Assembly: GCA_023554445.1 (NCBI GenBank)
Contig: JAMJQQ010000036.1
Span: 24,778-88,777 of the forward strand
Source of the DNA: Candidatus Carthagonibacter metallireducens
Lineage (GTDB): Bacteria > Gemmatimonadota > Gemmatimonadetes > Palauibacterales > Palauibacteraceae
Direction of reading: 5' to 3'
DNA length: 64,000 nt
Shown here piece by piece: positions 13,940-61,824 of this stretch. Each line of letters begins with the position of its first letter. Position 1 is the stretch's first letter. Under the pieces are notes generated by a model that ran no database searches, was not told where the DNA came from, and was given only the letters and a program-made list of their open reading frames with translations. Made by a program: the position numbers and the translations under genes.

Positions 13940-13976
13940 GGCTCAAGAGTCGAATGCCGGCGGGCCGGAGGGCGAG

Positions 13977-14498: not shown

Positions 14499-14549
14499 GA
14501 CGGGCCCGGGCGCGGTAGCGTATCGGGAGGTCGGCCCCTGCGCTGGAGG

Positions 14550-19026: not shown

Positions 19027-19031
19027 TCGCA

Positions 19032-42994: not shown

Positions 42995-44007
42995 CTCGGG
43001 GCTGGAAGGACGTCACGGTGGCGGTCGGGAAGAACCCCGACCGGGACCACGCATTCCGGGTCGAGCTGTTCGAAGAATACCTCCGTTTCGAACGGAATCT
43101 CTCCGATCGTACGGTTGCGGCGTATCTCCACGACTGCCGGGGATTCGCAGACTTCGCCCTCGAGAACGACGCCCGAAACCCATCCGCCGTCGACTACGGA
43201 CTGCTCCGGTCGTGGATGGCGGAGCTCTCAATCCGGGGGCTCGCGCCTGGCACTGCATCTCGGGCCCGGTCCGCACTCCGCACGTACTTCGCATTCCTGC
43301 TCGAAGAGGGATACCTCTCGGAAGATCCGACCGAACGGCTCGAGTCTCCCGGCCGGAGATCTCGACTGCCCGACGTGCTCAGCGTCAATCAGGTGCTGTG
43401 CATACTCGACACAGCGCGGAAACGGGCGGAGATCGCCAGTGGAGCCGGCGGCCTCACGGCCCGCGCGAAAGCGGCAACACTCAGAGATGCCTGCATGCTC
43501 GAATTTCTCTACGGCTCGGGACTTCGCATCTCGGAACTGATCGGTCTGGCCGTCCGTGACATAGAGATCGAGTCGGGATTCGCGATCATTCGGGGCAAGG
43601 GAGACAAGGAGCGGATCGTGCCCGTGGGCGGTGGTGCGAGGCGTGCGCTGCTCCGGTACCTTGAGGACGGACGGGAGTTGCTGGAGCGCCCCGGAAAGTC
43701 GAGAGGCGCGCTGTTCCTGAACCAGCGAGGGACGCCGATCAGTCGCACAGGGGCCTGGAAGATCGTCAAAGAGGCCGTCGAGCGCGCCAGACCCGAGGCG
43801 GAGAGAGGGGGCTTTCCGATCATGGGGAGTGTGACGCCTCATACTTTCCGCCACAGCTTCGCAACCCACCTGCTGGACGGCGGAGCCGACCTGGTCGCGG
43901 TACAGGAGATGCTCGGACATGCGGACATCTCGACGACCCAGATTTATACGCATGTGGACCGGAGTTACCTGCAGGCGGAGCACAGGCGCTATCACCCGAG
44001 AGCATGA
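42991..44007 (+). CDS. tyrosine recombinase XerC/XerD
   Basis: N-terminal SAM-like domain (ELFEEYLRFERNLSDRTVAAYLHDCRGF) and the catalytic region HTFRHSFATHLLDGGADLVAVQEMLGHADISTTQIYTHV. ATGA overlap with dedA. The context is housekeeping, not an island. Confidence 0.85.
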   Translation: MTRGWKDVTVAVGKNPDRDHAFRVELFEEYLRFERNLSDRTVAAYLHDCRGFADFALENDARNPSAVDYGLLRSWMAELSIRGLAPGTASRARSALRTYFAFLLEEGYLSEDPTERLESPGRRSRLPDVLSVNQVLCILDTARKRAEIASGAGGLTARAKAATLRDACMLEFLYGSGLRISELIGLAVRDIEIESGFAIIRGKGDKERIVPVGGGARRALLRYLEDGRELLERPGKSRGALFLNQRGTPISRTGAWKIVKEAVERARPEAERGGFPIMGSVTPHTFRHSFATHLLDGGADLVAVQEMLGHADISTTQIYTHVDRSYLQAEHRRYHPRA

Positions 44008-44013
44008 GCGAGC

Positions 44014-44547
44014 GTGAGCCACCTCTCCCGAGTCTACAATCTCTCTCGGAATCGGAAACCCGTGAAGCGGTTCGCCGATCGTCCGGTACCGCAAGAACTG
44101 CTGGATCGGATCCTGGACTGCGGCCGCTACTCGACGTCGGCGGGAGAGGATCAGCCCTGGAGATTCGTCATCGTGCGGGATCCGCTGATTCGTCATCGAC
44201 TCGCGGAGGCGGCCTTTCACAGCCGCCTGGCCCGGACGGCTCCGGTCGTAATCGTCGGCTGCGCCCGCCTTCACTCGCGAATCAGCGGAAATGGAAGACC
44301 CGCGCACCCGACCGACCTGGCTGCGGCGGCCCAGGCCATGTCTCTCTGCGCGGCCGACCTCGGACTGCAGTCGTCATGGATCACGGGTTTCCGCGAAACA
44401 TCGGTGCGTACGATTCTCGGCATACCTCAGGACATTCCGGTCGTGACACTTCTGGCTGTGGGATACCCGGACGGTTTCGTGCGTCTTCCCGATCGTCGTC
44501 CCGTCCACGAGACGGTGTCCTGGGACGCGTGGGAGGAACACGGGTGA
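44014..44547 (+). CDS. nitroreductase family protein
   Basis: RYSTSAGEDQPWRFVIVRD is typical of NADH/FMN nitroreductase-fold proteins. 177 aa. Confidence 0.7.
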   Translation: MSHLSRVYNLSRNRKPVKRFADRPVPQELLDRILDCGRYSTSAGEDQPWRFVIVRDPLIRHRLAEAAFHSRLARTAPVVIVGCARLHSRISGNGRPAHPTDLAAAAQAMSLCAADLGLQSSWITGFRETSVRTILGIPQDIPVVTLLAVGYPDGFVRLPDRRPVHETVSWDAWEEHG

Positions 44548-46037
44548 GAGGGCATGGAAGGCGGCCGGCCCTTCCGGTCGCAGGGATTCTGTCTCTGGCG
44601 ATTCTCGCGTGCATCCCCCGCGCTGGCGACGCCCAGGAAGTGGAGTTCACGCCACGAGCGGATCGACCGGTCGAGAGGCGACTCGACGAGTTCCTCGAGC
44701 GTGCGGACTACGCCGTACTGACTTCGGATACCGTACTCCGAGTCCCGGCGTCACCGGACCGGAGCATCCTGGTGCTGGATGCAGCCGTTCGGCTGGCGAC
44801 TACCGTCCCGGGTGACGTGTTCGTCGTGGATGGTGACCTCTTCCTGCGCCCCGGGGCGCGCGTCGAAGGAGACGTCGTCGTGCTCGGCGGCGGCTACTAC
44901 GCGTCGGAGCTGGCGGAAGTCTCGGGCGAGGTCATTTACCTTCCGAATGAGCTGTACAGCGTGGCCCGCACAGACGGGGGTTGGCGGATTTTTCCGATCA
45001 GGGAGGAGCCGAAGGCCGTAGATCTGCACGGCCTGTACGGTTTCGGCTTTCCCTACTACCAGCGAGTGGACGCGGTTACGCTGCGCTGGGGCGCGACGCT
45101 CAGGGCCACGGGATGGGCCTGGCAGCCCAGCCTGGAGGGAGAGCTCAGGTTCATCACGGAGCAGGGGGAATTCCAGGGAACCCTCAAGCAGTACTGGTAT
45201 CCGAGCGGTTCGTTTCAATTCGGATTCGAAGCCGAGAGGGTGACCCGGACGAACGAGGACTGGATCCGCGGTGACATCTCCAATTCCCTCTCGTACTTCT
45301 TCGTCGGAGACGACTTCCGCAACTACTACGGGGCGGATCGAGTCTCGATCGTGCTGCGTGGCAGCGAGACCGCCTCCTTGCAGCCTTTGCTCTCTGTCGA
45401 ATGGGAGGAGGCGAGCAGCAAGGAGGCCAGGAAGCAGTTCGTGCTGTTCGGGGACGATGAGCCCGCTCTCAATCCAGTCGTGGACGAAGGTGAAACGGTC
45501 AGCCTGATCGCCGGCCTCGGTTTGCAGCAGAGAGGGGCCGACCGACGGTTCGAAGCTTCGGTTCGGGCTGAGGTCGCCGATTCTTCGATTGCAGGAGATT
45601 TCAGCTTCGTATTCGGCGAAGCCAGGCTCTACTGGCTCACTCCGGGGTTCGGCTCTCATGAGGTCGAGCTCTTCGGAATTGTGCGGGGGGATCTGAGCGG
45701 AGACCTTCCCGCGCAACGGTGGAGCGCCTTCGGCGGCCGCGCTACGCTCCCCACGTTCGACCTGCTCTCCTTCCGCGGACCCCGACTCGTCTACGGGCAG
45801 GCCTCGTATCTGATTCCGATCTCGGCGCTTCGGGTGGCGATGATCGGGCCGCCGAAAGTTCTGCTCAGAGCCGTGGCTGGCTCGGCCTGGGGGCCCGACG
45901 ACTCGGAGGATTTCGAATCCAACCTCATTGCGGGACTTCGCTGGTCGGTCTTCGAGGCAGGTGTCGCCGTCGACCCGGGCGGATCAGATCCGACCTCGCG
46001 GCTGTATGCGATTTTGAGGTTTCCGGGAGACCTCTGA
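44544..46037 (+). CDS. uncharacterised secreted protein (signal peptide, repetitive beta-rich N-domain, beta-rich C-domain)
   Basis: The GTG at 44544 overlaps the nitroreductase TGA (GTGA). The N-terminus RGHGRRPALPVAGILSLAILACIPRAGDA-QE is a signal peptide. Next comes an ...GDVFVVDGDLFLRPGARVEGDVVVLGG... repeat, then alternating amphipathic beta-type sequence. I recognise no family. The track ORF (44004..) is extended 5' through the nitroreductase gene. Confidence 0.55.
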   Translation: MRGHGRRPALPVAGILSLAILACIPRAGDAQEVEFTPRADRPVERRLDEFLERADYAVLTSDTVLRVPASPDRSILVLDAAVRLATTVPGDVFVVDGDLFLRPGARVEGDVVVLGGGYYASELAEVSGEVIYLPNELYSVARTDGGWRIFPIREEPKAVDLHGLYGFGFPYYQRVDAVTLRWGATLRATGWAWQPSLEGELRFITEQGEFQGTLKQYWYPSGSFQFGFEAERVTRTNEDWIRGDISNSLSYFFVGDDFRNYYGADRVSIVLRGSETASLQPLLSVEWEEASSKEARKQFVLFGDDEPALNPVVDEGETVSLIAGLGLQQRGADRRFEASVRAEVADSSIAGDFSFVFGEARLYWLTPGFGSHEVELFGIVRGDLSGDLPAQRWSAFGGRATLPTFDLLSFRGPRLVYGQASYLIPISALRVAMIGPPKVLLRAVAGSAWGPDDSEDFESNLIAGLRWSVFEAGVAVDPGGSDPTSRLYAILRFPGDL

Positions 46038-46155: not shown

Positions 46156-49176
<3,021 letters not shown>

Positions 49177-49180
<4 letters not shown>

Positions 49181-50583
49181 GCGGTCGCGTCGGATTTCTG
49201 GCGGCGGCACTGCTGGCGACGGCCGGCGGACTCTTCGTCCCATCGACTGCCAGCCCCCAGGGCGTCAACCGATGCCCGATCAACATCCAGCGTGCAGGGC
49301 CACGTGTTGAACGTCCGGATCCGGAACGCGAAGGTGCGATCACGGCATTCATCAGCGGACCGGTCACCATAACCTGCGGCGATGCGACAATGACCGGCGA
49401 CAGCGCCGTCTGGCGGCAGGTCGAGGAAACGGGCCTGATGATCGGGAACGTGCGCTACCGTGATACGACCCGGACTTTGAACTCCGAGCGACTCACGTTC
49501 TTCGGTGCGCGGGACGAGGTGGTCGCGACCGGAGACGTCCGGCTCGTTCGGATCGCGAACGGAGCGAAACTCGAGGGACCGCGAGTCAGTTTCACGCGCA
49601 CTCCGTTCGTCGGCTCGCGAACCGTCGCCACGGAAAGGCCACGGATGACTCTGCCGGCGACCCGGGCGGGCGAGGGCGCGGGTCCCCAGACGATCGTCGA
49701 CGCCGACGTGGCCGAATTCGTCGGAGAGTCGGAGGCATCGGCGAGTGGGGAAGTGGTGATGACGCGAGGCGCCATCCGCGCCACGTCGGAGCGGGCCAGC
49801 TTCTCCGAGACGGCTGCGAGGGCGGTGCTCTACGATGACGCCGTAATCAGCGGAGAGGGATTCGACCTGGCGGGAGACAGCATTTCGGCCGGGTTCGAGT
49901 TCGGCGAGATCCGGTCGATCCACGCCTTCGAACAGGCGACGGCGAGCGGACGCCGCTTCCGGCTCCTCGCCGAGCAGATCCGGGCCCGTCTCGCCGGAGA
50001 TCAGGTCGAGATGATCTGGGCATTCGGCGAGGGGCGCTCGCTGGCCTCATCCGAACGCCTCACCCTGGCGGGCGACTCGATCGAATTCGCATTCATCGAC
50101 GGGGTGGCGGACTCGGTATCCGCGATCGGCACTGCTGCGGCGGAGCAGGACATGGGATCGACCGAATCGTTGCCAGCTCCGCCCGTACCCGTATCGAGCC
50201 CCGATTCGATCCTTGCCGGGCCGGACTCCCTGGCCGCGGCCGCGAATGGCCTGGTCGAGCCGGCGCTGGGGATCGACCCCGGCTCGAGCTGGATCGCGGG
50301 AGACACGGTACGGGCCTGGTTCGAACCCGACCCGACGGTTATCGGCGACCCCGCTACTTCGGAAGGCGGCAATTCTCGGATCCGACGGCTCCGGGCGCTC
50401 GGAGACGCGCGTTCGTTCTTCGCGGCCGTCAGGGATTCGGCCCGGAGTCTGGATCCCTCCCGCAATTATCTGCTCGGCGGTACCATCCAGATCGATTTCG
50501 AGGGTGGAGAGCCGCAGACGTTGTCGGGTACGGACGCTATCGGCGTGTACCTGGAACCGGCCGAGGAGGGAGAGCGTGGGTAG
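49177..50583 (+). CDS. lptA: LptA-like periplasmic protein (OstA-N fold), elongated to 468 aa with apparently repeated modules
   Basis: Signal peptide ([29 protein letters not shown]) followed by OstA-like beta-jellyroll sequence ([15 protein letters not shown]...VATGDVRLV). Similar patterns recur twice more downstream. GTGA overlap with lptC, and lptB follows. Confidence 0.6.
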
Positions 50584-51301
50584 CGTCCTGAGGGCCGTCG
50601 ATCTGGTCAAGGAATTCGGAAAGCGGCGCGTGGTAGACGGTATCAGTCTGGACGTGAGCCAGGGAGAGATCGTCGGGCTGCTGGGCCCCAACGGGGCAGG
50701 GAAGACGACGACATTCTACATGATCGTGGGCCTGTTGAAGGCGAACAGCGGGCAGGTGCTGTTGGACGACCAGGATCTCACACGGGTGCCGATGTATCGA
50801 AGGGCACGAGCTGGGATCGGATACCTGTCACAGGAACCGTCCATCTTCCGGCGTCTCACGGTGGAGCAGAACGTCATGGCGATTCTCGAGACGCTCGACC
50901 TGAGTCGCAAGCAGCGGGATCGCCGGCTGGACGAGCTGCTCGAGGAGCTGTCGATCTCGCATCTCAGGAAGAGCAAGGCGTACAGCCTGTCCGGGGGCGA
51001 ACGCCGGCGGCTCGAGATCACACGAGCCCTGGTAACGGAACCCAAGTTCATGCTGCTCGATGAGCCGTTCGCCGGCGTGGATCCGATCGCGGTGGACGAC
51101 ATACAGCGAATCGTCGCGGACCTGCGCACGAAGGGACTGGGTGTCCTGATCACCGATCACAACGTGCGCGAGACGCTCTCGATTACGGACCGGGCGTACC
51201 TGCTGTTCAACGGCAAGATTCACATCGAAGGACCGGCGCAGAAGCTCGTGGAAGACCCGGAAGCTCGTAAGATGTATCTCGGACTTGATTTCGAGCTGTA
51301 G
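50576..51301 (+). CDS. lptB: LPS export ABC transporter ATP-binding protein
   Basis: The GTG at 50576 overlaps the lptA TAG. Walker [10 protein letters not shown], the ABC signature [11 protein letters not shown], and Walker [11 protein letters not shown]. 241 aa. Confidence 0.9.
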
Positions 51302-51427
51302 GAGATCCTCCTGATTGCAAGGGGCGTGCCGTAGCGCTCCCGACCCCCTATCATTACCATTCATGAGTCGTGACGGGTCGTATCTCGGAAACTGTGAAAC
51401 CTGAAGCACACGTGAAGCCGGGGGCAG

Positions 51428-52867
51428 ATGGCGAACATGCGACGGGGGCTCAGTCAGAGCCTCGGTATGCGGCAGGAGCTGAAGATCAATCCTCGCCTGT
51501 ATCAGGCGATGGACCTTCTTTATATGCCTCTTCTCGACCTGCAGCAGCACCTCAAGCAGGAGATGATGGCGAATCCCTTCCTCGAGCTGGCAGAGCCGAT
51601 CGACGAGGAGGAAGAAGAGCAGGAGAAGGAAGAGGAAAAGGGAGAGGACGAGATCGACTGGGAGGAGATTCTCCTCAACGGTTTCGAAACTGGCGGACGC
51701 CGGGCCGAGTTCGAGGAGAAGGAGGCGTATCTCCCGACTCCGGCCGCTCCCCCGGACCTCTGGGATCATCTCAGAGAACAGCTCAACCTGACGCGGCTCG
51801 ATCCCCGGATGCGTTTCCTCGGCGAGGAGATCATCGGGAATATCGACCGGGAGGGCTTTCTCACCTGTCCGCTCGAAGAAATAGTGGAATCGGCGAACCA
51901 GTGGTTCTCTTCTGCGGAGCCCGAGCTATGGGAGGAGCTGGAGCCGTTCACGCTCGAGGAGGCGGAGGGTGTTCTGGCGGTAATTCAGTCCTTTTCCCCT
52001 AGTGGCGTCGGGGCTCGGGATCTGAGAGAGACCCTGCTTCTCCAGATGCGCGACCGGGACGAGCTGGACACGCTCGCCGGCCGGATCGTCCGCGATCATT
52101 TTGACCTGCTCGTCAGCCACCGGTGGAGCGAGCTCTCCAAGGAACACGGTATCTCGCCCCAGGACGTCCAGGCTTCGGCGGACGAGATCGCGAAGCTCGA
52201 CCCGAAGCCGGGGCTCAAGTACGCCGACATGAGTGACAACTACGTCACGCCCGATCTCACGGTCGAGAAGGTTGACGGTGAGTACTACGTGTTTCACAAC
52301 GACTCGACGTTGCCGCGGCTGAAGCTGTCCCGGGCCTATCGTGAGGTGGCCGCGGACAAGAACCAGTTCAAGGGCGACAACAAGGCGTTCATCGCCAAGA
52401 AGCTCAACAGTGCTCAATGGATGATCCAGGCGATCGAGCAGCGACGCCAGACGATGCTCAAGGTCATGCATTTCATCGTCGACCGACAGCGCGATTTCTT
52501 CGAGAAGGGCGTGGAGCACCTGCGGCCGCTCACTTTGCGGGAGGTCGCCGAGCACATCGACATGCACGAGTCGACGGTTTCCAGGGTGACGAACGAGAAG
52601 TACGTGCAGACGCCGCGAGGCGTACTTCCGCTCAAGTTCTTCTTCTCGAGCGGTCTTTCGACGGACTACGGCGAAGATGTATCGGCCCGTGGGATCAGAG
52701 CGCGTATTCAGAAGCTCGTCGCCGAGGAGGACACCAAGAAACCGCTTACCGACCAGGCGATCGTGGATATCCTGAAGAAGGAAGGTGTTCAGATCGCCAG
52801 GCGGACCGTGGCGAAGTATCGTGACCAGCTAGGCATTCTCTCGGCGCGGATGCGAAAGCGCGTATGA
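51428..52867 (+). CDS. rpoN: RNA polymerase sigma-54 factor
   Basis: The N-terminal Gln/Leu-rich region I, an acidic region II (EEEEEQEKEEEKGEDE), and the C-terminal RpoN box ARRTVAKYR with its HTH. Confidence 0.95.
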   Translation: MANMRRGLSQSLGMRQELKINPRLYQAMDLLYMPLLDLQQHLKQEMMANPFLELAEPIDEEEEEQEKEEEKGEDEIDWEEILLNGFETGGRRAEFEEKEAYLPTPAAPPDLWDHLREQLNLTRLDPRMRFLGEEIIGNIDREGFLTCPLEEIVESANQWFSSAEPELWEELEPFTLEEAEGVLAVIQSFSPSGVGARDLRETLLLQMRDRDELDTLAGRIVRDHFDLLVSHRWSELSKEHGISPQDVQASADEIAKLDPKPGLKYADMSDNYVTPDLTVEKVDGEYYVFHNDSTLPRLKLSRAYREVAADKNQFKGDNKAFIAKKLNSAQWMIQAIEQRRQTMLKVMHFIVDRQRDFFEKGVEHLRPLTLREVAEHIDMHESTVSRVTNEKYVQTPRGVLPLKFFFSSGLSTDYGEDVSARGIRARIQKLVAEEDTKKPLTDQAIVDILKKEGVQIARRTVAKYRDQLGILSARMRKRV

Positions 52868-53874
52868 ACGAATCGCGGGGCCCGCACGGGGCCTCGCGCG
52901 GGACCTCTCCCGCACCGCTCCCTACCTCTGCGACCGTCCCGGCCGCGTCTTCCTTTGCCGTGATCATCCCGGCTTTCGACGAAGCCGCCAACATGTCGGA
53001 CCTGTTCGCGGAGCTGTCGGAGACCTTCAGGAATCACGAGCTCGACGGCGAGGTCGTGCTGGTCGATGACGGCTCGTCGGACGGTACGCTGGCAGCGGCA
53101 CGGGAGGCTGCGGCGCGGGAGGGGTTCGCCCGGCTCCGACTGCTGCGTCATCGTACGAATCGCGGAAAAACCTCCGCTCTCGTGACGGGTGCCCGCGCCA
53201 CCGATGCCGAGGTGCTGGTGCTGTACGATGCCGATCTGCAGCATTCCACGGAGGAGATTCCTCGCTTCCTCGAAGGCATCGAGGGGGGACTCGATGTCGT
53301 GACCGGGCGGAAAGTGGGGCAGTACGACAAGCGCTTCGTATCGAGTGTCTACAACGGATTGGCGCGGCGGTTGTTCGACGTGCCGGTCAGGGACATGAAC
53401 TCGATGAAGGCGTTCCGGCGCGAGGTGCTCGAGGATCTGCACCTCAGGGAGGACTGGCATCGGTATCTCGTAGTGCTCGCGAACGCTCGCGGCTGGAAAA
53501 TCGGTGAGATCGACATCGAACTGCTTCCGCGCCGGCATGGCGACCCGAAGTACGGAGGGAGCGGTCGGATCCTGGTGGGCATGCTGGACCTGCTGGCCGT
53601 CTGGTTCCAGCTCGTGTTCAGCCGCAAGCCGCTGATGTTCTTCGGGGTCACCGGACTCGCGCTGCTGGCCGCGGGAGGCGTGGTCGGTCTGATCGCCCTC
53701 TGGCTTCGATTCGTGGAAGGATCCGGCTTCCGTCCGTTGCTGAACCTGGTCTTGTTGCTCGTGCTGCTCGGCGGCCTCCTGTTCATTGCGGGCCTGATCG
53801 GTGAGTTGATCGCGGGGCTTCGGTCAGAGGTCGACGATCTCCGACGCGAGCTGCGCCGGGCAGACCGGTCCTGA
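52864..53874 (+). CDS. family-2 glycosyltransferase, polyprenyl-phosphate sugar synthase type (GtrB/ArnC/CsbB-like) with C-terminal TM helices
   Basis: FAVIIPAFDEAANM...VVLVDDGSSDGT and the DxD region (LYDADLQH), then two C-terminal TM helices. ATGA overlap with the rpoN stop. Confidence 0.8.
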   Translation: MNESRGPHGASRGTSPAPLPTSATVPAASSFAVIIPAFDEAANMSDLFAELSETFRNHELDGEVVLVDDGSSDGTLAAAREAAAREGFARLRLLRHRTNRGKTSALVTGARATDAEVLVLYDADLQHSTEEIPRFLEGIEGGLDVVTGRKVGQYDKRFVSSVYNGLARRLFDVPVRDMNSMKAFRREVLEDLHLREDWHRYLVVLANARGWKIGEIDIELLPRRHGDPKYGGSGRILVGMLDLLAVWFQLVFSRKPLMFFGVTGLALLAAGGVVGLIALWLRFVEGSGFRPLLNLVLLLVLLGGLLFIAGLIGELIAGLRSEVDDLRRELRRADRS

Positions 53875-53914
53875 CCGGGCGCCGACGCGAACCCGGAACT
53901 CCATCTCTCACGCC

Positions 53915-55129
53915 TTGCGAATTCTCCACGTAGTCACCGCGTTTCCCCGGACACCCGAGGATCCGATCACGCCCTGGCTCGTGGAGTTGATCAGGAGGCA
54001 GCGGGCGGCGGGACTCGATGCGCAGGTCCTCGCTCCAGCCTACCTTGGCGGTCCGGAGCGAGAGGCGTTCGATGACATCCCCGTGCATCGCTTTCGGTAT
54101 GCCCCGGCGTCGTGGGAGGTACTCACGCATGATGAGACCGTGCCGGACCGGATTCGGCAGCGACGATACGTCGCGGGCCTCGTGCCACCATACCTGGCCG
54201 CAGGCATCCGCGCCGGCCACGAGGCAGGCCGATCCAGCCCGGAGGTCGTGCATGTGCACTGGCCGATGCCGCATGCCCTGATCGGCGCGGCGGTGCGTCG
54301 GGGCTCCGGAGGACGCACGGCGATGGTGTGCAGCTACTACAGCGTCGAGTTGAACTGGGTGAAGGGCAGCATGCCGCGTCTGATGCCATTTCTGCGCTGG
54401 ACGGCCCGAAGCGCGGACGCAGTGACCGCGATCTCGACCTCGACCGCAGACGCCGTCCGGCAACTCACCGATACACCGGTCTACATCGTGCCATACGGTG
54501 CGGCATTCGAGGATGACGGCCTCCCGGTTCGTTGCTCGGCTCTCAGAGGAGAGCGGCCGCTGCGGCTCCTGTTCGTCGGGCGTCTCGTCGAGCGGAAGGG
54601 CGTAGAGGTGCTGGTGCGGGCGCTATCGGCTCTCTCCGCGTTTCCCGATGCCGAGCTCACCGTGATCGGCACCGGGGAGCGCGCCACGATCATCGAGCGA
54701 ACGGCCCGGGTTCACGGGGTCGCGGATCGTGTTCGGATGCTCGGATCGGTCTCCCGAGATCGGCTGGTTGAGAGCTATGAGGATCACGATATCTTCGTGC
54801 TCCCGGCTGTCGTGGACGAAAAGGGTGACACCGAAGGTCTCGGAGTCGTGCTGCTCGAGGCACTTCGATTCGAACGGCCGGTGATCGCCAGCGGAATCGG
54901 AGGCATCACCGACATCGTGGAGCACGGTCGCTCGGGACTGCTGGTTCCGCCGGGGGATTCCGACGCGCTCGCATCCGCGATCGAAGAGATGGCGCGTGAC
55001 CCCGAGCGGGCGCGCGCCATGGCAGCGACCGGCCGCGAGGATGTCCGCCGGCAATTCGGCTGGGAACGGGTAGTGATGGAAACCAGCCGCGCGTACCGGG
55101 TGGCAATGGAGCGGCGAGATGGTGCGTGA
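53915..55129 (+). CDS. family-4 (GT-B) glycosyltransferase
   Basis: MRILHVVTAFP N-terminus and the C-terminal GT4 motif (GVVLLEALRFERPVIASGIGG...EHGRSGLLVPPGD). TTG start. Confidence 0.8.
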   Translation: MRILHVVTAFPRTPEDPITPWLVELIRRQRAAGLDAQVLAPAYLGGPEREAFDDIPVHRFRYAPASWEVLTHDETVPDRIRQRRYVAGLVPPYLAAGIRAGHEAGRSSPEVVHVHWPMPHALIGAAVRRGSGGRTAMVCSYYSVELNWVKGSMPRLMPFLRWTARSADAVTAISTSTADAVRQLTDTPVYIVPYGAAFEDDGLPVRCSALRGERPLRLLFVGRLVERKGVEVLVRALSALSAFPDAELTVIGTGERATIIERTARVHGVADRVRMLGSVSRDRLVESYEDHDIFVLPAVVDEKGDTEGLGVVLLEALRFERPVIASGIGGITDIVEHGRSGLLVPPGDSDALASAIEEMARDPERARAMAATGREDVRRQFGWERVVMETSRAYRVAMERRDGA

Positions 55130-55898
55130 GCACGCGACCGCGGACCGCTACGGCGAGCTCGTCACGTCGCAGGCCTACCGTCGTGCCAGGGTCGCGAAGG
55201 CGGAAGTCATCTGGCATCTGTGCGGTGACCGGCTGCTTCGGGCGAAAAGGCCGGCCGACCTCGGGGCGGGAACCGGGATCATGCGAGCCGTACTCGAGGA
55301 CAAGATGGGGAAGCCGCTGTATGGATTCGAGATCGATATCTCGTTCGTCGAGGAGCCGAAGCACATGGTCGGAGCGGACGTCGAGCGCCTGCCCCTCGCT
55401 GACGGGGCGCTCGACTTCGTGATCATGAATCACCTCTACGAGCATGTTTCGCACCCCGATGTTCTGTTTCGAGAGGCATTCCGCGTGCTTGCCCCGGGCG
55501 GGGGCGCCTACGTCACGGCGGGCAGTCGTCTTGCCGTGATCGAGCCGCACTACCGGCTACCGTTCCTGAGCTGGCTGCCCCGACCGGTGGCCTCGGCATA
55601 CCTTCGGTTGTCAGGTAGAGGCGACAGCTACGAGGGGATCCGGTTTCTTACCTATCGACCCCTCACGGATCTGATGCGGAAGGCGGGGTTCGTCGTTCAC
55701 GACATCACGGAGAGGGCGATCGATGAGCTTCTGGATCGAACCCGGGGCAGGTCCTGGACCGCTGCCTGGGCTGCGGCCGGCAGTCTGGGCGACGATACGC
55801 GTGCGGCCCTGCTTCGCCTCGCGTCTCCGCAGTGGTTCTTCATGCTGGAAAAACCGCTGACCCGGACGAGTGACGCAACCGGGAGCGGCGATGACTGA
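55119..55898 (+). CDS. class I SAM-dependent methyltransferase
   Basis: SAM motif I LGAGTGIM and the acidic loop DVERLPLADGALDFVIMNHLYEHV (methyltransferase type 11/12). It overlaps the GT4 end by 11 nt. Confidence 0.75.
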   Translation: MVREHATADRYGELVTSQAYRRARVAKAEVIWHLCGDRLLRAKRPADLGAGTGIMRAVLEDKMGKPLYGFEIDISFVEEPKHMVGADVERLPLADGALDFVIMNHLYEHVSHPDVLFREAFRVLAPGGGAYVTAGSRLAVIEPHYRLPFLSWLPRPVASAYLRLSGRGDSYEGIRFLTYRPLTDLMRKAGFVVHDITERAIDELLDRTRGRSWTAAWAAAGSLGDDTRAALLRLASPQWFFMLEKPLTRTSDATGSGDD

Positions 55899-58233
55899 GC
55901 TGACGATCGACCGGAGGCCCCGGGTTCCGCCGTGGCTGGCCTTCTCGGGAGTCTGCCTGCTGCTCTCGATTCTCTTCTATCGGGAGTTCGTGTTCGGGCC
56001 GGGGACGATGTTGTTCGGAACGGACATGGTGGACCAGGCATTTCAGCTTCGCCAGTTCGGTGTGGAGGAGATCCGCAGCGGGAGAGGATTCCCCCTGTGG
56101 AATCCGTTCGTGTACGGAGGCCTCCCCTACCTGGCCGTGTTGCCGGGCCCGGTGTTCTATCCGACGAGTCTGCTGTACCTGATCATGCCGCTGCACAGGG
56201 CGATCGGGTGGACCTTCGTGCTGCACACGGCCTTGAGCGGAGTCTTCGCCTATGCCGCGGCCCGGTCGATCCGTCTCGACCCGAAGGCGAGCTCTGCCGC
56301 CGGTCTCGCCTTCCTGCTCACCGGAATGGTCCTGTCGACGGTATACGGTGGGCACGACGGCCGGATGTTCGTCATGGTTCTCGTTCCACTGGCATTCGCA
56401 CTGCTCGAGAAGGGTCTGCAGACGGGTAGAGCCGGCTGGTTCGCCGGAATGGGACTCGTCGTGGCTCTGCAGATCTTCACCCCCCACGTGCAGTTGATGT
56501 ACTTCTCTTCGCTCTGTCTGTCCCTGTATGCACTGGTCAGGATCTCGAGCATCGGTCGCGGAGAGGCGGGGCGGGGCGGGGCCCTCCGGCTGTTCGGGCT
56601 TTTCGGGCTCGGATTCCTGATCGCCGCCCTGGTCGGAGCGGCCCAGCTCGTCCCCACGTGGCGGATACTCGACATCGCGGTTCGAGGTGGAACCGGAGAG
56701 TCCGGCTACGGATTCGCGTCCTCCTGGGCCCTGCCACCGCAGGAGCTGACAGCGCTCATTCTGCCCGATCTGGTCGGCTCCCTGCAGACGTACTGGGGCA
56801 CGAATCCGTTCAAGTTGCACACGGAGTACCTGGGCGTCGTCCCCGTCGCGCTCGCCCTCGTCGCCTTGACCGGGATCCGGTCTGATGCCAGGGTCCGGTT
56901 GTTGAGTGCGATCGCACTGCTCTGCATCCTCTTCGCACTGGGTGCAGCTACTCCCTTCCACCGATTGACCTATGCACTCGTTCCGCTCATTTCGCGGTTT
57001 CGAGCACCTTCGATGATGCTGGGGCCCGGTGCCCTGTTCGTAGCCCTGCTCGCCGGCATCGGCTGGGAGAGAATCACCGCTCAGCCATCGGGCGCGGAAG
57101 GGAATTCTCGGCCTTCCGGAGCAGCGCTCGCGGTGTTGCTGGGACCACTGCTGCTCGTCGGTCTGCTCGCGCTGGCCAGCCCCGAGGGACTGGCCCGGTG
57201 GGCGCATACCGCTCTGTTTCCCACCGGTTTCGACCGGTTTCCCGGCCCCGAAGGGATCGCTCAGCTCAGAGGGAACGGCATGATGTTGGTTCTCGGCACC
57301 GCCGCCGTTTTCGCGGCAGCCTGGACCTCCGACCGCGGCGGAGTGGTGCCGCTGGCCGCCGCCGCGCTCGTCGCATGTGTGCTCGTAGCGGATCTGTGGA
57401 GAGTGGATACGCGCTACGTGGAAACGGTGCGCCCGGAGGAGGTGTTTCCGGCCGATCCTTCGATCGCGCGGATGCGCGAGGGCCTCGGGGCAGGGGAGAG
57501 GGTGTTTCCGGTGCCAGGGCGGACCGGTTATCGCCCGAATGAACTGATGGGCTACAGGGTCCCGTCGGTCACGGGGAGCCAGAACTTCCGACTCGAGTGG
57601 TTCGAGCGATTGAGCGGAGGACTTTCCTACCGGAATCTAGGAGCTCCGGCAGTCTGGCAGCTGTTCGACCTCCGATACCTGACCACGGATGCGCCGGTCG
57701 AAACCCCCCTTCTCACGGAATTGGAACGTGGCGCTCGAGGTGTGGTCTACGAGGTCGCGTTCGACGCACCGCACGCATGGTTCCCCGAGTCCGTCGAGGC
57801 GACCCGGGACACTTCCGAAGCCCTGCGCCGGGTCCTCGCGCTGGAGGATCCGCTGTCGCACGCCATCGTCGAGGCCGACCGGGCGCCGCCGGCCGGGGCC
57901 GGAGAGGCGAGAGTGACGCGACTCGAAGCGGACGAAATCGTGCTCGATGTCGTAGCCGAGCGCTCGGGGCTGCTGTTCGTCAGCGAGATCTGGCACCCGT
58001 CCTGGCTGGCGACGGTGGACGGGGAGCCGGCCGAGGTCCTGAGGACCAACGTCGCATTCCGGGGTGTGGTAGTGCCCGAGGGCCCGCATCAAGTGAGGCT
58101 GCATTATTCTGCTGCGGAGTTTCGCCTCGGCTTCGGGCTCTCGGCAGCCGGACTGTTGCTCGCGGGCGGCGTCCTGCTCTCGGGCATGGCGGCGTGGCGG
58201 AGAACTGGTGGCGACCCGGGAACAGAGGGCTGA
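55891..58233 (+). CDS. YfhO-family polytopic membrane glycosyltransferase-like protein
   Basis: 780 aa with many TM helices. The N-terminal motif FGTDMVDQAFQLRQFGVEEIRSGRGFPLWNPFVYGGLPYLA matches the YfhO family signature (G-x-D...Q...P-L-W-N-P...GG-P), and there is a large extracytoplasmic C-terminal domain. The ATG at 55891 with GGGAG upstream is preferred over the GTG at 55870. Confidence 0.6.
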   Translation: MTELTIDRRPRVPPWLAFSGVCLLLSILFYREFVFGPGTMLFGTDMVDQAFQLRQFGVEEIRSGRGFPLWNPFVYGGLPYLAVLPGPVFYPTSLLYLIMPLHRAIGWTFVLHTALSGVFAYAAARSIRLDPKASSAAGLAFLLTGMVLSTVYGGHDGRMFVMVLVPLAFALLEKGLQTGRAGWFAGMGLVVALQIFTPHVQLMYFSSLCLSLYALVRISSIGRGEAGRGGALRLFGLFGLGFLIAALVGAAQLVPTWRILDIAVRGGTGESGYGFASSWALPPQELTALILPDLVGSLQTYWGTNPFKLHTEYLGVVPVALALVALTGIRSDARVRLLSAIALLCILFALGAATPFHRLTYALVPLISRFRAPSMMLGPGALFVALLAGIGWERITAQPSGAEGNSRPSGAALAVLLGPLLLVGLLALASPEGLARWAHTALFPTGFDRFPGPEGIAQLRGNGMMLVLGTAAVFAAAWTSDRGGVVPLAAAALVACVLVADLWRVDTRYVETVRPEEVFPADPSIARMREGLGAGERVFPVPGRTGYRPNELMGYRVPSVTGSQNFRLEWFERLSGGLSYRNLGAPAVWQLFDLRYLTTDAPVETPLLTELERGARGVVYEVAFDAPHAWFPESVEATRDTSEALRRVLALEDPLSHAIVEADRAPPAGAGEARVTRLEADEIVLDVVAERSGLLFVSEIWHPSWLATVDGEPAEVLRTNVAFRGVVVPEGPHQVRLHYSAAEFRLGFGLSAAGLLLAGGVLLSGMAAWRRTGGDPGTEG

Positions 58234-58238
58234 GAGCG

Positions 58239-59216
58239 GTGCGGGGGGGCGAGAATTCCGATCCCGGAAGGGCACTGCCCGTCCACGAGAAGCGAAAACG
58301 GGCGATCGGCTGGACGTTCGTGGCCCTGTCGCTCGTGTTCGCGCTCTTCCTTCTCGTGCGCCAGGGTGGAGAGGTGTCGGGATTGCGCTCCGACCTGCGC
58401 GACTTCGGCTGGACTCTTCGCCCCGGCTGGCTCATTGCGGCTCTCGTGATCGGCACCGCAAACCTGTTTCTCATGGGCGCGATCTGGGTAGGGCTGTTTC
58501 GGGCACTGGGAGGCAGGATCGGAACGTCGGAGGGGGTTCGGGTGTGGATGGTGACCAATCTCGGGCGCTACATTCCGGGCAAGCTCTGGCAGCTGTCGGG
58601 CCTCGCGTTCTACATGCGGGACCGCCGGAGGGCAGGCGCGTCAGCGTTGACGGCAGCCGGTCTGTTTCAGGTGCTCGTCCTCGGGACGGGGGTCGCCGTC
58701 GCCGCGGCCGTGCTGGGCGCCGAATTTCTGGCGGGGGGAGCGACCGTTCCGATCGCGGTCATCCTTCTGCTGCTCGTGGTCCTGCTGGTGCGACCCTCAC
58801 TGACGGGCCGTCTGACGGGTGCGCTGGCAAAGCGCTTCGGAGAGACGCCGCCGGCGCAGCCACCGGGAGCCGGCTCGGCCGTGCTGGCTGCCCTCGGCCT
58901 GATCGTGGCGTGGATGGTGAACGGTCTCGGCCTCTGGTGTGTCTGGAGAGGGGCGGGAGGCGGCACCGAACCCGGCTTTCTGACGATGGCGGGAGTGTTC
59001 TCAGCCTCCTACGTCGCCGGATATCTCGTCCTCATCGCGCCCGGAGGACTGGTGGTGAGAGAAGGAACGATGGCCGGATTGCTGGCCGCTGTTGCCGGCG
59101 TGCCTCTCTCCGTCGGAGCGGCAGTCGCGGTACTCGCGCGGCTGTGGGCGGTGGCGACGGAGTTACTGGCGGCGGGACTCGCGGGTACAGTCCGGCAGGA
59201 ACGAGGTGAGGGGTGA
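58239..59216 (+). CDS. flippase-like / lysylphosphatidylglycerol-synthase-TM-region family membrane protein
   Basis: Roughly 8 TM helices, with YIPGKLWQ near the middle and a C-terminal LIAPGGLVVREG that resembles the P-G-G-l-G-v-R-E motif of this family. GTG start 6 nt after the yfhO-like stop. The track ORF (57597..) is a 5' extension through that gene. Confidence 0.5.
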   Translation: MRGGENSDPGRALPVHEKRKRAIGWTFVALSLVFALFLLVRQGGEVSGLRSDLRDFGWTLRPGWLIAALVIGTANLFLMGAIWVGLFRALGGRIGTSEGVRVWMVTNLGRYIPGKLWQLSGLAFYMRDRRRAGASALTAAGLFQVLVLGTGVAVAAAVLGAEFLAGGATVPIAVILLLLVVLLVRPSLTGRLTGALAKRFGETPPAQPPGAGSAVLAALGLIVAWMVNGLGLWCVWRGAGGGTEPGFLTMAGVFSASYVAGYLVLIAPGGLVVREGTMAGLLAAVAGVPLSVGAAVAVLARLWAVATELLAAGLAGTVRQERGEG

Positions 59217-59977
59217 GTTCAGGAGCATCGACGGACCGGACCGCCGGGGATCGAGGACGTGGACGAGCGCTCGTCGTGCTTCCCACGTACGAAGAGGCCC
59301 GGAACCTCGAGGGAATCGTACCGCTGATTCTCGAGGCCGACCCGCGGATCGACATCCTGATCGTCGACGATGCGTCTCCCGATGGTACGGGGGCGATCGC
59401 CGATCGCATCGCATCGACCGAACCGCGCGTGCGAGTCCTGCACCGTGAGGGAAAGCAGGGCCTGGGATCGGCTTATCTGACCGGCTTCGGAATCGGGCTG
59501 GAGCAGGGATACGAGTGGCTGATAGAGATGGATGCGGACTATTCGCACGATCCGAAGTATCTGCCGGAGATGCTGGATGCGGCCTCCGGAGAGGCCGATC
59601 TCGTGATCGGATCCCGCTACGTCCGGGGGGTCAACGTGATCAACTGGCCGATGAGTCGCCTGCTCCTGTCGTGGTTCGCCAACAAGTACGCGCACTGGAT
59701 CACGGGCCTTCCGCTGAAGGACGCGACCAGCGGATTCAAGTGTTTCCGACGGGAAGTGCTGGAAGCGATCGACTTCGACCGCGTGGGCAGCACCGGATAC
59801 ACATTCCAGATCGAGATGGACTATCGAGCCTGGAAGCAGGGATTCCGGCTCAAGGAAATTCCGATCGTGTTCACCGATCGGGCCGAGGGAGAGAGCAAGA
59901 TGTCGGGCGCTATCGTGCGGGAGGCCGTATGGCGGGTATGGGCGCTGAGAATGAAGGGTCTTACCGGCCGTCTTTAG
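59213..59977 (+). CDS. family-2 glycosyltransferase, Dpm1-like polyprenyl-phosphate mannosyl/glucosyltransferase (soluble type, no TM)
   Basis: LVVLPTYEEARNL, ILIVDDASPDGT, and the DxD-equivalent EMDADYSHDP. GTGA overlap with the preceding gene. Confidence 0.8.
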   Translation: MSSGASTDRTAGDRGRGRALVVLPTYEEARNLEGIVPLILEADPRIDILIVDDASPDGTGAIADRIASTEPRVRVLHREGKQGLGSAYLTGFGIGLEQGYEWLIEMDADYSHDPKYLPEMLDAASGEADLVIGSRYVRGVNVINWPMSRLLLSWFANKYAHWITGLPLKDATSGFKCFRREVLEAIDFDRVGSTGYTFQIEMDYRAWKQGFRLKEIPIVFTDRAEGESKMSGAIVREAVWRVWALRMKGLTGRL

Positions 59978-60038
59978 CAGGTCGTGCGGGCCGGAGGAGA
60001 GGCCGGAGTGCCACGAGAGGGTAACCACCCATGGGCGC

Positions 60039-60060
60039 TAGTTAACATAATATACATTAT
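60039..60060. other. 22-nt AT-rich island (TAGTTAACATAATATACATTAT) flanked by GGCGC/GCGCC, in the convergent intergenic region
   Basis: Seen in sequence. It has 3/22 GC in a genome of roughly 65-70% GC, and contains GTTAAC and the near-symmetric ATAATATACATTAT. On the - strand, after the TPR-gene stop, a GGCC-TTTTT-C run is visible, so this region may contain terminator elements. Confidence 0.3.
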
Positions 60061-60145
60061 GCGCCGTTAGGCTGGCGCCGGTCGACAGGCGCCGGGTGCC
60101 GGGCTGGACCCGAAAAAGGCCCTCGACCGGACGGATCGAGCCGGA

Positions 60146-60997
60146 CTACTCTCCCGAGTCCGTCTCCGGATTCCCGGCCTCGTCCCCGGACTCCGACGGC
60201 GCCGCGTCGAACGACTCCGTGCTCGGACGGCCCGTGGAAGGTGCGGTAAGCGCCTCCGGGTCGAAGGTCCGCATCTCCGGAACCGGCGGGACACTTCCGC
60301 CCGCCGCCTGTAACGCTTCAACCTCGCCCACCCGGACCGCCCAGATCGATGCCTGGTCCTCGGCCTGAGGCTCCTCATCCGCGAGCAGCTGACGGTAGAG
60401 TGACTCCGCACGCTGGAGGTCGCCGATCCGGGCATGAATTCTGGCCTGCTCGCCAATAGCGTCCTCGCGCTGAAAGCCGAACACGGCCTCCCTCGCGATC
60501 CGCTCGTGCCACCGGATCGCCTCCTCCGGGCGTCCCGCCATCTCGTGGGCAGCGGCGATCGCCTCGGCGGCCCGAAATGCCACAGGGGTTCCCATGGCGA
60601 GGTCGGCTGCTGGCTCCAGATTCCGGATCGCGGAATCGAAGTCGTTTGCTCTCAGATCCATCTGGGCCATGTAGAGGCGCGCTTCGTTACCGAACGGCGT
60701 TCCGCCGAACTGGCCGATGTACTCGGCGAGTTCAGCCCTGACCTGCTCGGGCGGAGCGCCCGACGCGGAGGTCATTCGTATCTCGTCCAGCCGCACTGCC
60801 GCACGCTCGGAGATCTTGCTCCGGTAGTCGAGATATGCCCAACCGGCAAACAGGAGCGCGATCAGCGCAACGGTACCCAGTGTGACCACCCGGCGATTCC
60901 GGTCCGCCCAGTCCGCCGCGGTGACGACGCTCTCGACGACACGATCCTCGGTGTTGACCGGTTCCTTCTTGGCCTTCGTGGCCATCGACTTTGCCAT
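60146..60997 (-). CDS. membrane-anchored TPR-like protein (YfgM-like)
   Basis: A short N-terminal cytoplasmic segment and one TM helix (VVTLGTVALIALLFAGWAYL). The body is helical and Ala/Arg/Glu-rich, repeat-like, with an acidic tail. Confidence 0.55.
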   Translation of the reverse strand: MAKSMATKAKKEPVNTEDRVVESVVTAADWADRNRRVVTLGTVALIALLFAGWAYLDYRSKISERAAVRLDEIRMTSASGAPPEQVRAELAEYIGQFGGTPFGNEARLYMAQMDLRANDFDSAIRNLEPAADLAMGTPVAFRAAEAIAAAHEMAGRPEEAIRWHERIAREAVFGFQREDAIGEQARIHARIGDLQRAESLYRQLLADEEPQAEDQASIWAVRVGEVEALQAAGGSVPPVPEMRTFDPEALTAPSTGRPSTESFDAAPSESGDEAGNPETDSGE

Positions 60998-61155
60998 GAC
61001 AGATCAACCACTTCCTGTAAGTACTTGTTTGCGAGTGACTTATGTCGCCCTTGCCGCACCCGTACCTCTCCCGGCCGGATACAGGCCTGAAAACCTATCC
61101 GGTCGTGCGGGCCCGAGTCAACGAGAAGGTCAGCGTGTGTGCCCCGACCAGCCGC

Positions 61156-61824
61156 TCAGAATACGAACGAGACGCTGAGAAACCCGAGCACCAGCAGCAC
61201 CACGAAGGCGATGGTCAGAAGGTTGAAGTACTTCTCGATGAACTCGCGGATCGGCTCGCCGAAGGCACGGATCAGACCTGCGACCAGGAAGAACCGGGCA
61301 CCTCGACTCAGTGCGGAGATCGCTATGAACGCAGGAAAGGACACACCGAACGCGCCCGCCGCAATGGTGAAGACCTTGAACGGGATCGGAGTGAAGCCCG
61401 CCGTCCCGAGCGTGAGAATGAGGTTCTCCTCGAACAGGACCCGAAGTTCGTCGTAGTGCTCCTGTCCATGGTAGAACTGGATGATCGGCTCGCCGATGGA
61501 GGCATAGAGGGAGCTTCCGATCACGTAACCGAGGGCTGCACCTGCCACCGAGCCGACCGTGCAGACGAAGGCGAACCAGAGGGACCGTCGCACATTGCCG
61601 AGAGCGAGGGGAATCAGCAACACATCGGGAGGAATGGGAAAGAAGGATGACTCCGCGAAGGCGATTCCGAACAGCGCCCAGGTTCCGCCCGGCCGGTCGG
61701 CCCATCCCAGTACCCAGTGGTAGAGGCGATGCAAGGGACCGCCGTGCGATCCATCCTCCGCCAGTTCCAACTCTTCCGACTCGACGACCGCCTCGGCCGC
61801 GCTCCCCTGCACCGGATCGTTCAC
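61156..61824 (-). CDS. DedA/YqaA-type membrane protein
   Basis: FFPIPPDVLLIPLAL, then GFTPIPFKVFTIAAGAFGVSFPAFIAISALSRGARFFLVAG. The track start (61884) overlaps pcm by 63 nt. The GTG at 61824 overlaps the pcm TGA (GTGA). Confidence 0.7.
   Translation of the reverse strand: MNDPVQGSAAEAVVESEELELAEDGSHGGPLHRLYHWVLGWADRPGGTWALFGIAFAESSFFPIPPDVLLIPLALGNVRRSLWFAFVCTVGSVAGAALGYVIGSSLYASIGEPIIQFYHGQEHYDELRVLFEENLILTLGTAGFTPIPFKVFTIAAGAFGVSFPAFIAISALSRGARFFLVAGLIRAFGEPIREFIEKYFNLLTIAFVVLLVLGFLSVSFVF

Follow-up and report, generated by a model that had tools for sequence, protein, structure and literature searches.

What do six glycosylation-type genes do directly behind rpoN, the gene for sigma-54, in a member of the Gemmatimonadota? 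We analysed a 64-kb, G+C-rich (62–68%) stretch of a Gemmatimonadota metagenome-assembled genome (MAG; Candidatus Carthagonibacter metallireducens, contig JAMJQQ010000036.1), hereafter the window. Here rpoN is followed by two family 2 glycosyltransferases (GT2a and GT2b), a family 4 glycosyltransferase (GT4), a class I S-adenosylmethionine-dependent methyltransferase (MT), a YfhO-family glycosyltransferase of the GT-C fold class and a protein resembling the flippase domain of MprF. We conclude, with a probability of about 0.7, that the six genes and rpoN form one conserved operon attaching lipid-carried sugars to a target at the outer face of the inner membrane. Such a system would be an uncharacterised, conserved combination of known enzyme families and not a new kind of system. 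What sets the run apart is its MprF-like flippase candidate instead of GtrA, its composite make-up and its fixed coupling to rpoN.

The six tightly packed open reading frames (ORFs) of the original prediction were confirmed on the plus strand, with the ORF list, the junctions and the NCBI gene calls in agreement; NCBI called identical genes on identical public contigs (GCA_023554515.1 JAMJQM010000081.1 and two sister MAGs). The public MAGs with these contigs are labelled 'marine benthic group bacterium'. The stop codon of rpoN (51428–52867, +; 479 aa; Pfam Sigma54_AID, CBD and DBD) overlaps the start of GT2a (52864–53874, +; 336 aa; Glycos_transf_2), whose sole usable start codon is ATG 52864. 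There follow GT4 (53915–55129, +; 404 aa; TTG start; Glycos_transf_1 and Glyco_transf_4), the MT (55119–55898, +; 259 aa; Methyltransf_11/23/25), the YfhO-family GT-C (55891–58233, +; 780 aa; YfhO, PF09586), the stand-alone MprF-flippase-like protein (PplT/UPF0104, LPG_synthase_TM; 58239–59216, +; 325 aa; PF03706) and GT2b (59213–59977, +; 254 aa; GTG start; Glycos_transf_2). Pfam matches of all six proteins and of rpoN lay above the curated gathering cut-offs, and every family that had been predicted (Glycos_transf_2 twice, Glycos_transf_1, Methyltransf_11, YfhO and LPG_synthase_TM) was recovered. The junctions, expected to overlap or to stay under 45 nt, measured −11 to +40 nt: −4 (ATGA) for rpoN/GT2a, +40 for GT2a/GT4, −11 for GT4/MT, −8 for MT/YfhO, +5 for YfhO/flippase-like and −4 (GTGA) for flippase-like/GT2b. 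A terminator directly after rpoN would have spoken against the predicted run; rpoN and GT2a overlap, leaving no room for one, and a scan of 49000–61200 returned promoter-like and terminator-like sites at chance level. No matches came from tRNA and Rfam scans of the window. The six-gene run is followed by a TPR_21 gene, and since this gene is convergent, the run ends at 59977.

Among relatives this gene order is the rule. Scanning a genome collection gave 80 Gemmatimonadota loci (L001–L080), all of them from MAGs, in which order was read by tblastn with the window proteins, and the synteny anticipated for relatives held across these genomes. The usual order was lptA-lptB-rpoN-GT2a-extra gene-GT4-(MT)-YfhO-LPG_synthase_TM-GT2b-TPR_21, with TPR_21 on the minus strand. 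Among loci with at least 7 kb upstream, rpoN-GT2a stood ahead of YfhO in 49 of 55, and because the arrangement recurs in so many related loci with enough upstream DNA, it is not a product of chance. GT2b came after YfhO in all 68 loci with enough downstream DNA, 61 of which had a detectable flippase-like gene between the two. The overlap between the rpoN stop and the GT2a start (4 nt, NTGA, correct frame) was kept in 54 of 55 loci. Although −4 was also the commonest spacing at the other junctions of the run, these were less uniform (flippase-like/GT2b, −4 in 31 of 63 loci). As the most invariant junction of the locus, the rpoN/GT2a overlap argues for selection on co-expression. A single locus (L033, CP070670.1) seemed to be without GT2a, GT4 and rpoN upstream of YfhO; it holds a run of 100 N, and the absence is probably an assembly gap.

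The extra gene of the usual order, found in 51 loci (e.g. L008, 6396–7991), lies between GT2a and GT4 and encodes a protein of ~530 aa with weak PMT_2 and DUF6798 matches, which makes it a candidate second GT-C. By tblastn the 64-kb window holds no copy of this PMT_2-like GT-C, and only a 40-nt spacer (53875–53914) occupies its place; the closest relatives are also without it. We conclude that it was lost in this window's clade.

More distant loci separate the run from rpoN. Five distant Gemmatimonadota loci had no rpoN upstream, and L070 and L073 showed the order metallophosphoesterase-MT (L070)-GT4-GT2a-(PMT_2 in L073)-GT4-(MT)-YfhO-LPG_synthase_TM-GT2b. Further out, L084 (YfhO 35% identical) retained lptC-lptA-like-lptB-rpoN-GT2 (4-nt overlap)-PMT_2-UDP-GlcNAc 2-epimerase-GT4-YfhO-LPG_synthase_TM-GT2. 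Without rpoN, four deeper lineages (YfhO 26–36% identical) kept YfhO, LPG_synthase_TM, a GT2 of ~237 aa, and GT4 and/or MT. Their orders were GT4-MT-LPG_synthase_TM-YfhO-UbiA-DUF362-GT2 (237 aa)-GT2 in L085 (YfhO 29%); PMT-GT2-PMT_2-GT4-epimerase and, beyond an interval, MT-LPG_synthase_TM-YfhO-GT2 (237 aa) in L086 (36%); GT4-unknown-YfhO-LPG_synthase_TM-GT2 (238 aa)-Bac_transf in L087 (36%); and LPG_synthase_TM-MT-YfhO-GT2 (237 aa)-GT2 in L088 (26%). Type IX secretion system (T9SS)-type domains suggest that the L085 and L088 lineages are bacteria of the Fibrobacterota–Chlorobiota–Bacteroidota (FCB) group. The YfhO-like protein has hundreds of homologs, every one with an organism name belonging to Gemmatimonadota, and an exhaustive phmmer search with it returned 39,416 cluster representatives (50% identity) at E ≤ 1e-3, of which 1,716 passed E ≤ 1e-30; numerous matches were full-length, at ~800 aa and 25–36% identity.

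We read the run as two recurring units: unit A, a GT2 anchored by transmembrane (TM) helices together with a PMT_2-type GT-C, and unit B, comprising GT4, MT, YfhO, the flippase-like protein and the soluble GT2. Within this window only unit B is complete, and unit A is without its GT-C. The 'six-gene module' of the original prediction holds in that the genes are present and contiguous, but they are better described as two sub-units. Its claim that the rpoN context is unusual stands against Proteobacteria and falls within Gemmatimonadota, where the context is standard. The YfhO-like family is large (39,416 clusters), and most of the core is found elsewhere without rpoN.

Some relatives carry insertions or exchanges of their own. 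L047 (Candidatus Palauibacter) has an additional gene (13378–15030) that separates GT2b from the flippase-like gene; its 550-aa product combines cadherin-like, Big_9, He_PIG and Laminin_G_3 domains and might be a secreted acceptor or accessory protein. L055 and L058 have likewise enlarged gaps at this position. A UDP-GlcNAc 2-epimerase (Epimerase_2) adjoins GT4 in L084 (6760–7914), in place of the MT, and in L086 (5485–6645), where the MT is kept elsewhere; this hints at a use of N-acetylmannosamine (ManNAc) or a similar sugar in these two loci.

The two GT2 proteins resemble lipid-sugar synthases of different build. GT2a is predicted to be a membrane-anchored polyprenyl-phosphate sugar synthase of the ArnC/GtrB/CsbB type, its activity being taken from homology. 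Residues 30–323 align with the solved ArnC (9hwj) over the full length at 9.2e-23, residues 22–323 align with GtrB (5ekp), membrane part included, and the catalytic domain matches the Pyrococcus dolichol-phosphate mannose synthase (DPMS; 5mlz). The translation shows a DAD motif, and C-terminal hydrophobic segments at about 259–313 make up two TM helices. ArnC is its nearest neighbour among NCBIfam models and solved structures; GT2a scores under every NCBIfam equivalog cut-off (ArnC model, 100.6 bits vs 529). For GT2b, a soluble DPM1-like polyprenyl-phosphate hexose synthase is predicted: residues 19–245 align to residues 25–246 of DPMS 5mlz (7.6e-32), the DAD metal motifs of the two coinciding (MDADYSH vs MDADLQH), and its homologs are named polyprenol monophosphomannose synthase in the source databases. 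It contains no hydrophobic segment and reaches no NCBIfam equivalog cut-off. No other protein of the run is conserved as well as GT2b (59–92% identity among relatives). We also weighed a hopanoid HpnL/HpnI-type pair and set it aside, the flippase-like protein having no HpnL match and the HpnB matches of the GT2 proteins being weak.

The 780-aa protein is of the YfhO family, as had been predicted: it scores 38.2 bits against a Pfam cut-off of 28.5 (residues 685–758 on model positions 761–835), 12 of 12 aligned homologs match the model (best E-value 1.9e-14), and the fold is that of a GT-C. Sequence searches of the PDB returned no relative, and the fold was assigned by comparison of structures, which showed an N-terminal multi-helix membrane domain and a long first external loop. 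The AlphaFold model, built with 12 homologs (predicted local distance difference test, pLDDT, 71; predicted template modelling score, pTM, 0.76), places ~12–13 TM helices, then a beta-rich C-terminal domain in the periplasm and one last TM helix. After TM1 comes a conserved G-T-D-M-x-D-Q motif, G-T-[D/E]45-M-x-[D/E/N]48 among homologs, in a loop modelled at low confidence; its acidic spacing is D-x-x-D and not DXD. We ruled out an STT3/PglB-type oligosaccharyltransferase, as no WWD motif is present. Three enzymes with non-protein acceptors, AftD, AftA and ArnT, score about as well in the fold comparison.

The 325-aa protein encoded at 58239–59216 is not the unrelated transporter that would have undone the original prediction. 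It matches LPG_synthase_TM over nearly its full length (45.4 bits vs 33.4), and although PDB sequence searches with the single sequence and with a profile gave nothing, fold comparison identified the TM-domain flippase fold of MprF (model pLDDT 88.5). The aminoacyl-phosphatidylglycerol synthase domain of true MprF is absent from this stand-alone protein, and homologs listed with precomputed Pfam annotation carry PF03706 only. Because all junctions measure at most 40 nt, the run has no room for a further gene, and this protein is its only flippase candidate.

GT4 is predicted to be a cytoplasmic glycosyltransferase of the retaining-type, GT-B family 4, with BshA-like 2jjm and PimB' 3okc as its closest solved relatives; it received no specific NCBIfam assignment. 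No specific family assignment was found for the MT, which is absent, relocated or swapped for a UDP-GlcNAc 2-epimerase in some relatives. Both are free of hydrophobic segments, which in the run are confined to GT2a and the YfhO-like and LPG_synthase_TM proteins.

Families, folds and synteny together support the lipid-carrier glycosylation that had been proposed for these genes. Families, folds, motifs, synteny and the overlap are observations, and from homology and gene order we derive the catalytic steps, flipped substrate, sugars and acceptor as follows. In the cytoplasm GT2a, held by its own two TM helices, would charge polyprenyl phosphate with the sugar of a nucleotide sugar; GT2b would do likewise, probably seated on the flippase-like protein in the manner of the archaeal AglD fusion. 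The candidate for carrying a lipid-linked sugar to the outer leaflet is the MprF-flippase-like protein, and the YfhO-family GT-C would then transfer it to an envelope acceptor. GT4 and the MT, both cytoplasmic, most likely build or modify a lipid-linked acceptor or glycolipid, and the 4-nt stop/start overlap would tie expression to sigma-54.

The scheme has precedents. In multi-component transmembrane glycosylation a GT-A enzyme makes an undecaprenyl-phosphate (C55-P)-linked sugar, a flippase moves it and a GT-C transfers the sugar outside, and a soluble GT-A can work with a separate membrane protein (PMC8035078). Of the GtrA/GtrB/GtrX type, the membrane-linked GT-A and the co-encoded GT-C are matched here, but a GtrA/Wzx flippase is not. 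The CsbB/GtcA/YfhO systems that glycosylate teichoic acid with GlcNAc in B. subtilis, in S. aureus and in L. monocytogenes share the TM-anchored GT2 and the YfhO GT-C in family and fold (PMC8035078). Unlike them, the present run sits in a diderm host with lpt genes, so that teichoic acid is not expected, has an MprF-like protein and not a GtrA type, adds GT4, MT, a soluble GT2 and rpoN coupling, and matches the Pfam YfhO model at the C-terminus only. Streptococcal O-glycosylation by GtrB/PgtC2 and PgfS/PgfM1/PgfM2 likewise pairs a GT2 with YfhO GT-C enzymes, whose external loop there bears an acidic motif (PMC12041528), although those systems are Gram-positive, have no MprF-like, GT4 or MT component, and use DXD where our protein has D-x-x-D. 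A further precedent is AglD of Haloferax, in which a DPM1-like GT2 is fused to a UPF0104/MprF-like domain with PMT/STT3-like genes as neighbours, bringing synthase, flippase-like domain and GT-C into one neighbourhood (PMC5898192). Here, by contrast, synthase and flippase-like protein come from two genes that overlap by 4 nt, in reverse order, in a bacterium and with a YfhO-type GT-C; the archaeal system finishes an N-glycan, and no acceptor is assigned here. Fusions of PplT (UPF0104/MprF-like) domains with GT-A or with GT-B domains occur in many prokaryotes (10.1101/2022.03.11.483950). Literature searches found no YfhO-family enzyme in diderm or Gram-negative bacteria and nothing on Gemmatimonas glycolipids or lipopolysaccharide (LPS) glycosylation.

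Several points weigh against an operon for lipid-carried sugars. The Pfam YfhO model covers only ~75 C-terminal residues of the 780-aa protein, whose structural model is of medium confidence (pLDDT 71) with a poorly modelled acidic-motif loop. Two donor synthases stand beside a single GT-C in the window, and Pfam identified no GtrA- or Wzx-type flippase among the six proteins. The NCBIfam equivalog cut-offs were all missed widely, so that no sugar can be named, and the roles given to GT4 and the MT are guesses. Finally, the flippase-like protein may flip a glycolipid and not a polyprenyl-phosphate sugar: phospholipids are the only substrates for which this role of the MprF flippase domain has experimental support, and lipid translocation and cargo are unproven even for GpgF and PplT (10.1101/2022.03.11.483950; PMC12713373). 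As to the acceptor, the evidence does not discriminate among LPS, protein and glycolipid.

The closest alternative, which we consider less likely, is a glycolipid or lipoglycan pathway. GT4 would glycosylate a membrane lipid (phosphatidylglycerol or diacylglycerol), the MT would modify it and the MprF-like protein would flip that glycolipid, a movement also proposed for gpgSDF (PMC12713373); YfhO would then extend it outside with polyprenyl-phosphate sugar from GT2b or GT2a, so that the route would resemble gpgSDF/hexSDF followed by the mycobacterial conversion of phosphatidylinositol mannosides (PIM) to lipomannan (LM). In the operons for glucosaminyl-phosphatidylglycerol (GlcN-PG) in P. aeruginosa (gpgSDF) and for the C. 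difficile counterpart (hexSDF), a GT4 and a UPF0104 protein serve a lipid head group, and in the former this pair makes GlcN-PG (PMC12713373). The confirmed MprF flippase fold with its known phospholipid cargo, the adjacency of GT4, MT, LPG_synthase_TM and YfhO in distant lineages, the similarity of GT4 to PimB'/PimA/BshA-type enzymes and weak CMAS/UbiE-type (lipid methyltransferase) matches of the MT in L085 and L047 are all consistent with it. However, GT4 matches the GlcN-PG synthase model generically (54.5 bits vs 480), the run contains no deacetylase and, unlike gpgSDF/hexSDF, has a GT-C and two polyprenyl-phosphate-sugar synthases in addition. The flippase-like gene, moreover, is joined most tightly to GT2b, as in AglD fusions, which favours a polyprenyl-phosphate-sugar cargo.

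That LPS is the acceptor, with lipid A or core being decorated in the periplasm in an Arn-like way, we consider unlikely. It is suggested by the similarity of GT2a to ArnC, greater than to any other enzyme compared and extending over the full length, by the ArnT-class (PMT_2-like) GT-C that adjoins GT2a in 51 relatives, and by an LPS-related neighbourhood: the run directly follows kdsB, pyrG, lptC/A/B and rpoN, and the context of rpoN in diderms is generally LPS-related (PMC3162934). The lptB-rpoN linkage is ancient, however, and does not by itself imply shared function. There are also differences from the ArnC/ArnT/ArnEF pathway: the ArnC equivalog is missed (100.6 vs 529), the run holds no arnA/B/D/E/F-like genes and hence neither 4-amino-4-deoxy-L-arabinose (Ara4N) synthesis genes nor ArnE/F, the window is without the PMT_2-like GT-C, and the core unit is found apart from lpt genes too.

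A protein acceptor appears doubtful as well. The YfhO-family enzymes PgtC2 and PgfM1 do glycosylate Ser/Thr-rich regions (PMC12041528), but the missing WWD motif shows that our protein is not of the STT3/PglB type, no candidate acceptor gene lies within the window's run, and the non-protein-acceptor enzymes AftD, AftA and ArnT fit about as well. Least credible, and in our view very improbable, is that functionally unrelated genes have been packed into a compact housekeeping region with rpoN hitch-hiking: the window is of housekeeping character throughout its 64 kb (nuo, glycolysis, fab, sucCD, lpt) and such genomes often have overlapping junctions, but the set stays together without rpoN, also where YfhO is only 26–36% identical, 54 of 55 loci preserve the overlap though genes are gained, lost and relocated in adjacent parts of the run, and the families form a recognised enzymatic logic.

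A further conserved feature, one that the original prediction did not include, lies upstream of rpoN. The usual neighbours of rpoN in diderms are lptABC, kdsCD, hpf, PTS-Ntr (the nitrogen-related phosphotransferase system) and yhbJ (PMC3162934), and here glycosylation genes have taken the place of the downstream partners. Upstream, the lptB-rpoN spacer (median 125 nt among relatives) contains in the window a sigma-54-type −24/−12 box at 51316–51331 on the minus strand, reading CGGCACGCCCCTTGCA, with one mismatch to TGGCAC-N5-TTGCW and the GG/GC spacing of 10 nt. It starts 15 nt past the lptB stop (3–40 nt across relatives) and points away from rpoN. Alignment of 43 lptB-rpoN spacers showed a conserved block, TGCAA-N5-GTGCC, equal to TGGCAC-N5-TTGCA on the minus strand. 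Sites with at most one mismatch occurred in 25 of the 43 spacers, on the minus strand in 24 of the 25, and of the sites in 1.39 Mb of related loci the spacers, 7.6 kb in all, accounted for 6 of the 6 perfect ones and 19 of the 29 with one mismatch, a several-hundred-fold enrichment over the rest of the loci. Some other clades instead have a plus-strand TGG(C/T)ACGATTCTTG(T/C) in this spacer, and the spacer of L027 has one box each way (5427, +; 5451, −). Conservation of the window's single one-mismatch site comes from this comparison alone; across the whole window the consensus at two mismatches was seen 12 times against 15.7 expected, with no enrichment.

The box does not face a downstream gene; it is antisense to lptB and directed at that gene's 3' end. 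We found no bacterial enhancer-binding protein (bEBP) gene in the scanned ORFs of the window, activator sites not having been searched for, and the spacer folds no better than shuffled sequences (z = 0.56). Sigma-54 holoenzyme binds promoters in an inactive state and can repress overlapping promoters; antisense sigma-54 sites are known in E. coli, where roadblocking is unsupported (PMC4591121). The inverted box may serve to autoregulate rpoN together with the glycosylation genes, or it may drive an antisense RNA into lptB; literature searches returned nothing on rpoN autoregulation in Gemmatimonadota. A stronger version links two readings, that the sigma-54 level is hard-wired to envelope glycosylation in this phylum and that the MprF-like protein is a dedicated polyprenyl-phosphate-monosaccharide flippase; we judge this conjunction improbable. 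On the first, the inverted box may let holoenzyme govern its own operon, through occupation of the rpoN promoter region or through an antisense transcript fired into lptB, and the 4-nt overlap may hand sigma-54 control stoichiometrically to the first lipid-sugar synthase. On the second, the MprF-like protein may be complexed with the soluble DPM1-like synthase. Dedicated flippases of this kind are, to our knowledge, a class still largely undefined.

Gemmatimonadota are abundant in soils and sediments, and we know of almost nothing on their envelope chemistry. As a conserved part of the core genome, the operon is a candidate for a major decoration of the envelope in the phylum. It allows one to ask whether UPF0104/PplT proteins translocate polyprenyl-phosphate sugars and why a sigma-54 gene is so tightly joined to envelope functions. 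Should none of the specific readings hold, an ordinary uncharacterised glycosylation gene cluster remains.

The surroundings in the window add a possible partner and some atypical genes. Downstream, the convergent operon consists of TPR_21 (60146–60997), a DedA/VTT gene, pcm and surE. The second of these encodes a DedA/VTT-domain membrane protein (61156–61824, −; Pfam VTT_dom on the NCBI gene call) and lies downstream, with pcm and surE, in ~30 related loci. DedA proteins are linked to recycling of the carrier lipid polyprenyl phosphate, which makes this protein a possible recycling partner, its membership of the glycosylation system being uncertain. Upstream, the order is an xerC-like recombinase, a 677-aa ORF, kdsB, pyrG, a 191-aa ORF in the lptC position, a 468-aa LptA-like ORF and lptB. 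The XerC/D-type tyrosine recombinase (42634–44007, +) and the 677-aa ORF (44004–46037, +; no Pfam match) overlap by 4 nt directly upstream of kdsB. The components of the periplasmic Lpt bridge appear atypical here, as the ORF in the lptC position (48605–49180, +; 191 aa) is without a Pfam match and the unusually long LptA-like ORF (49177–50583, +; 468 aa) matches only LptD_N, and weakly. The remaining window is core metabolism (nuo, gap-pgk-tpi, sucCD, fabDGF, glmM). Within it, an 808-aa ORF (18477–20903, +) has, after an unmatched N-terminal region of ~240 aa, the NuoC (30-kDa) and NuoD (49-kDa) domains of complex I joined in one protein.

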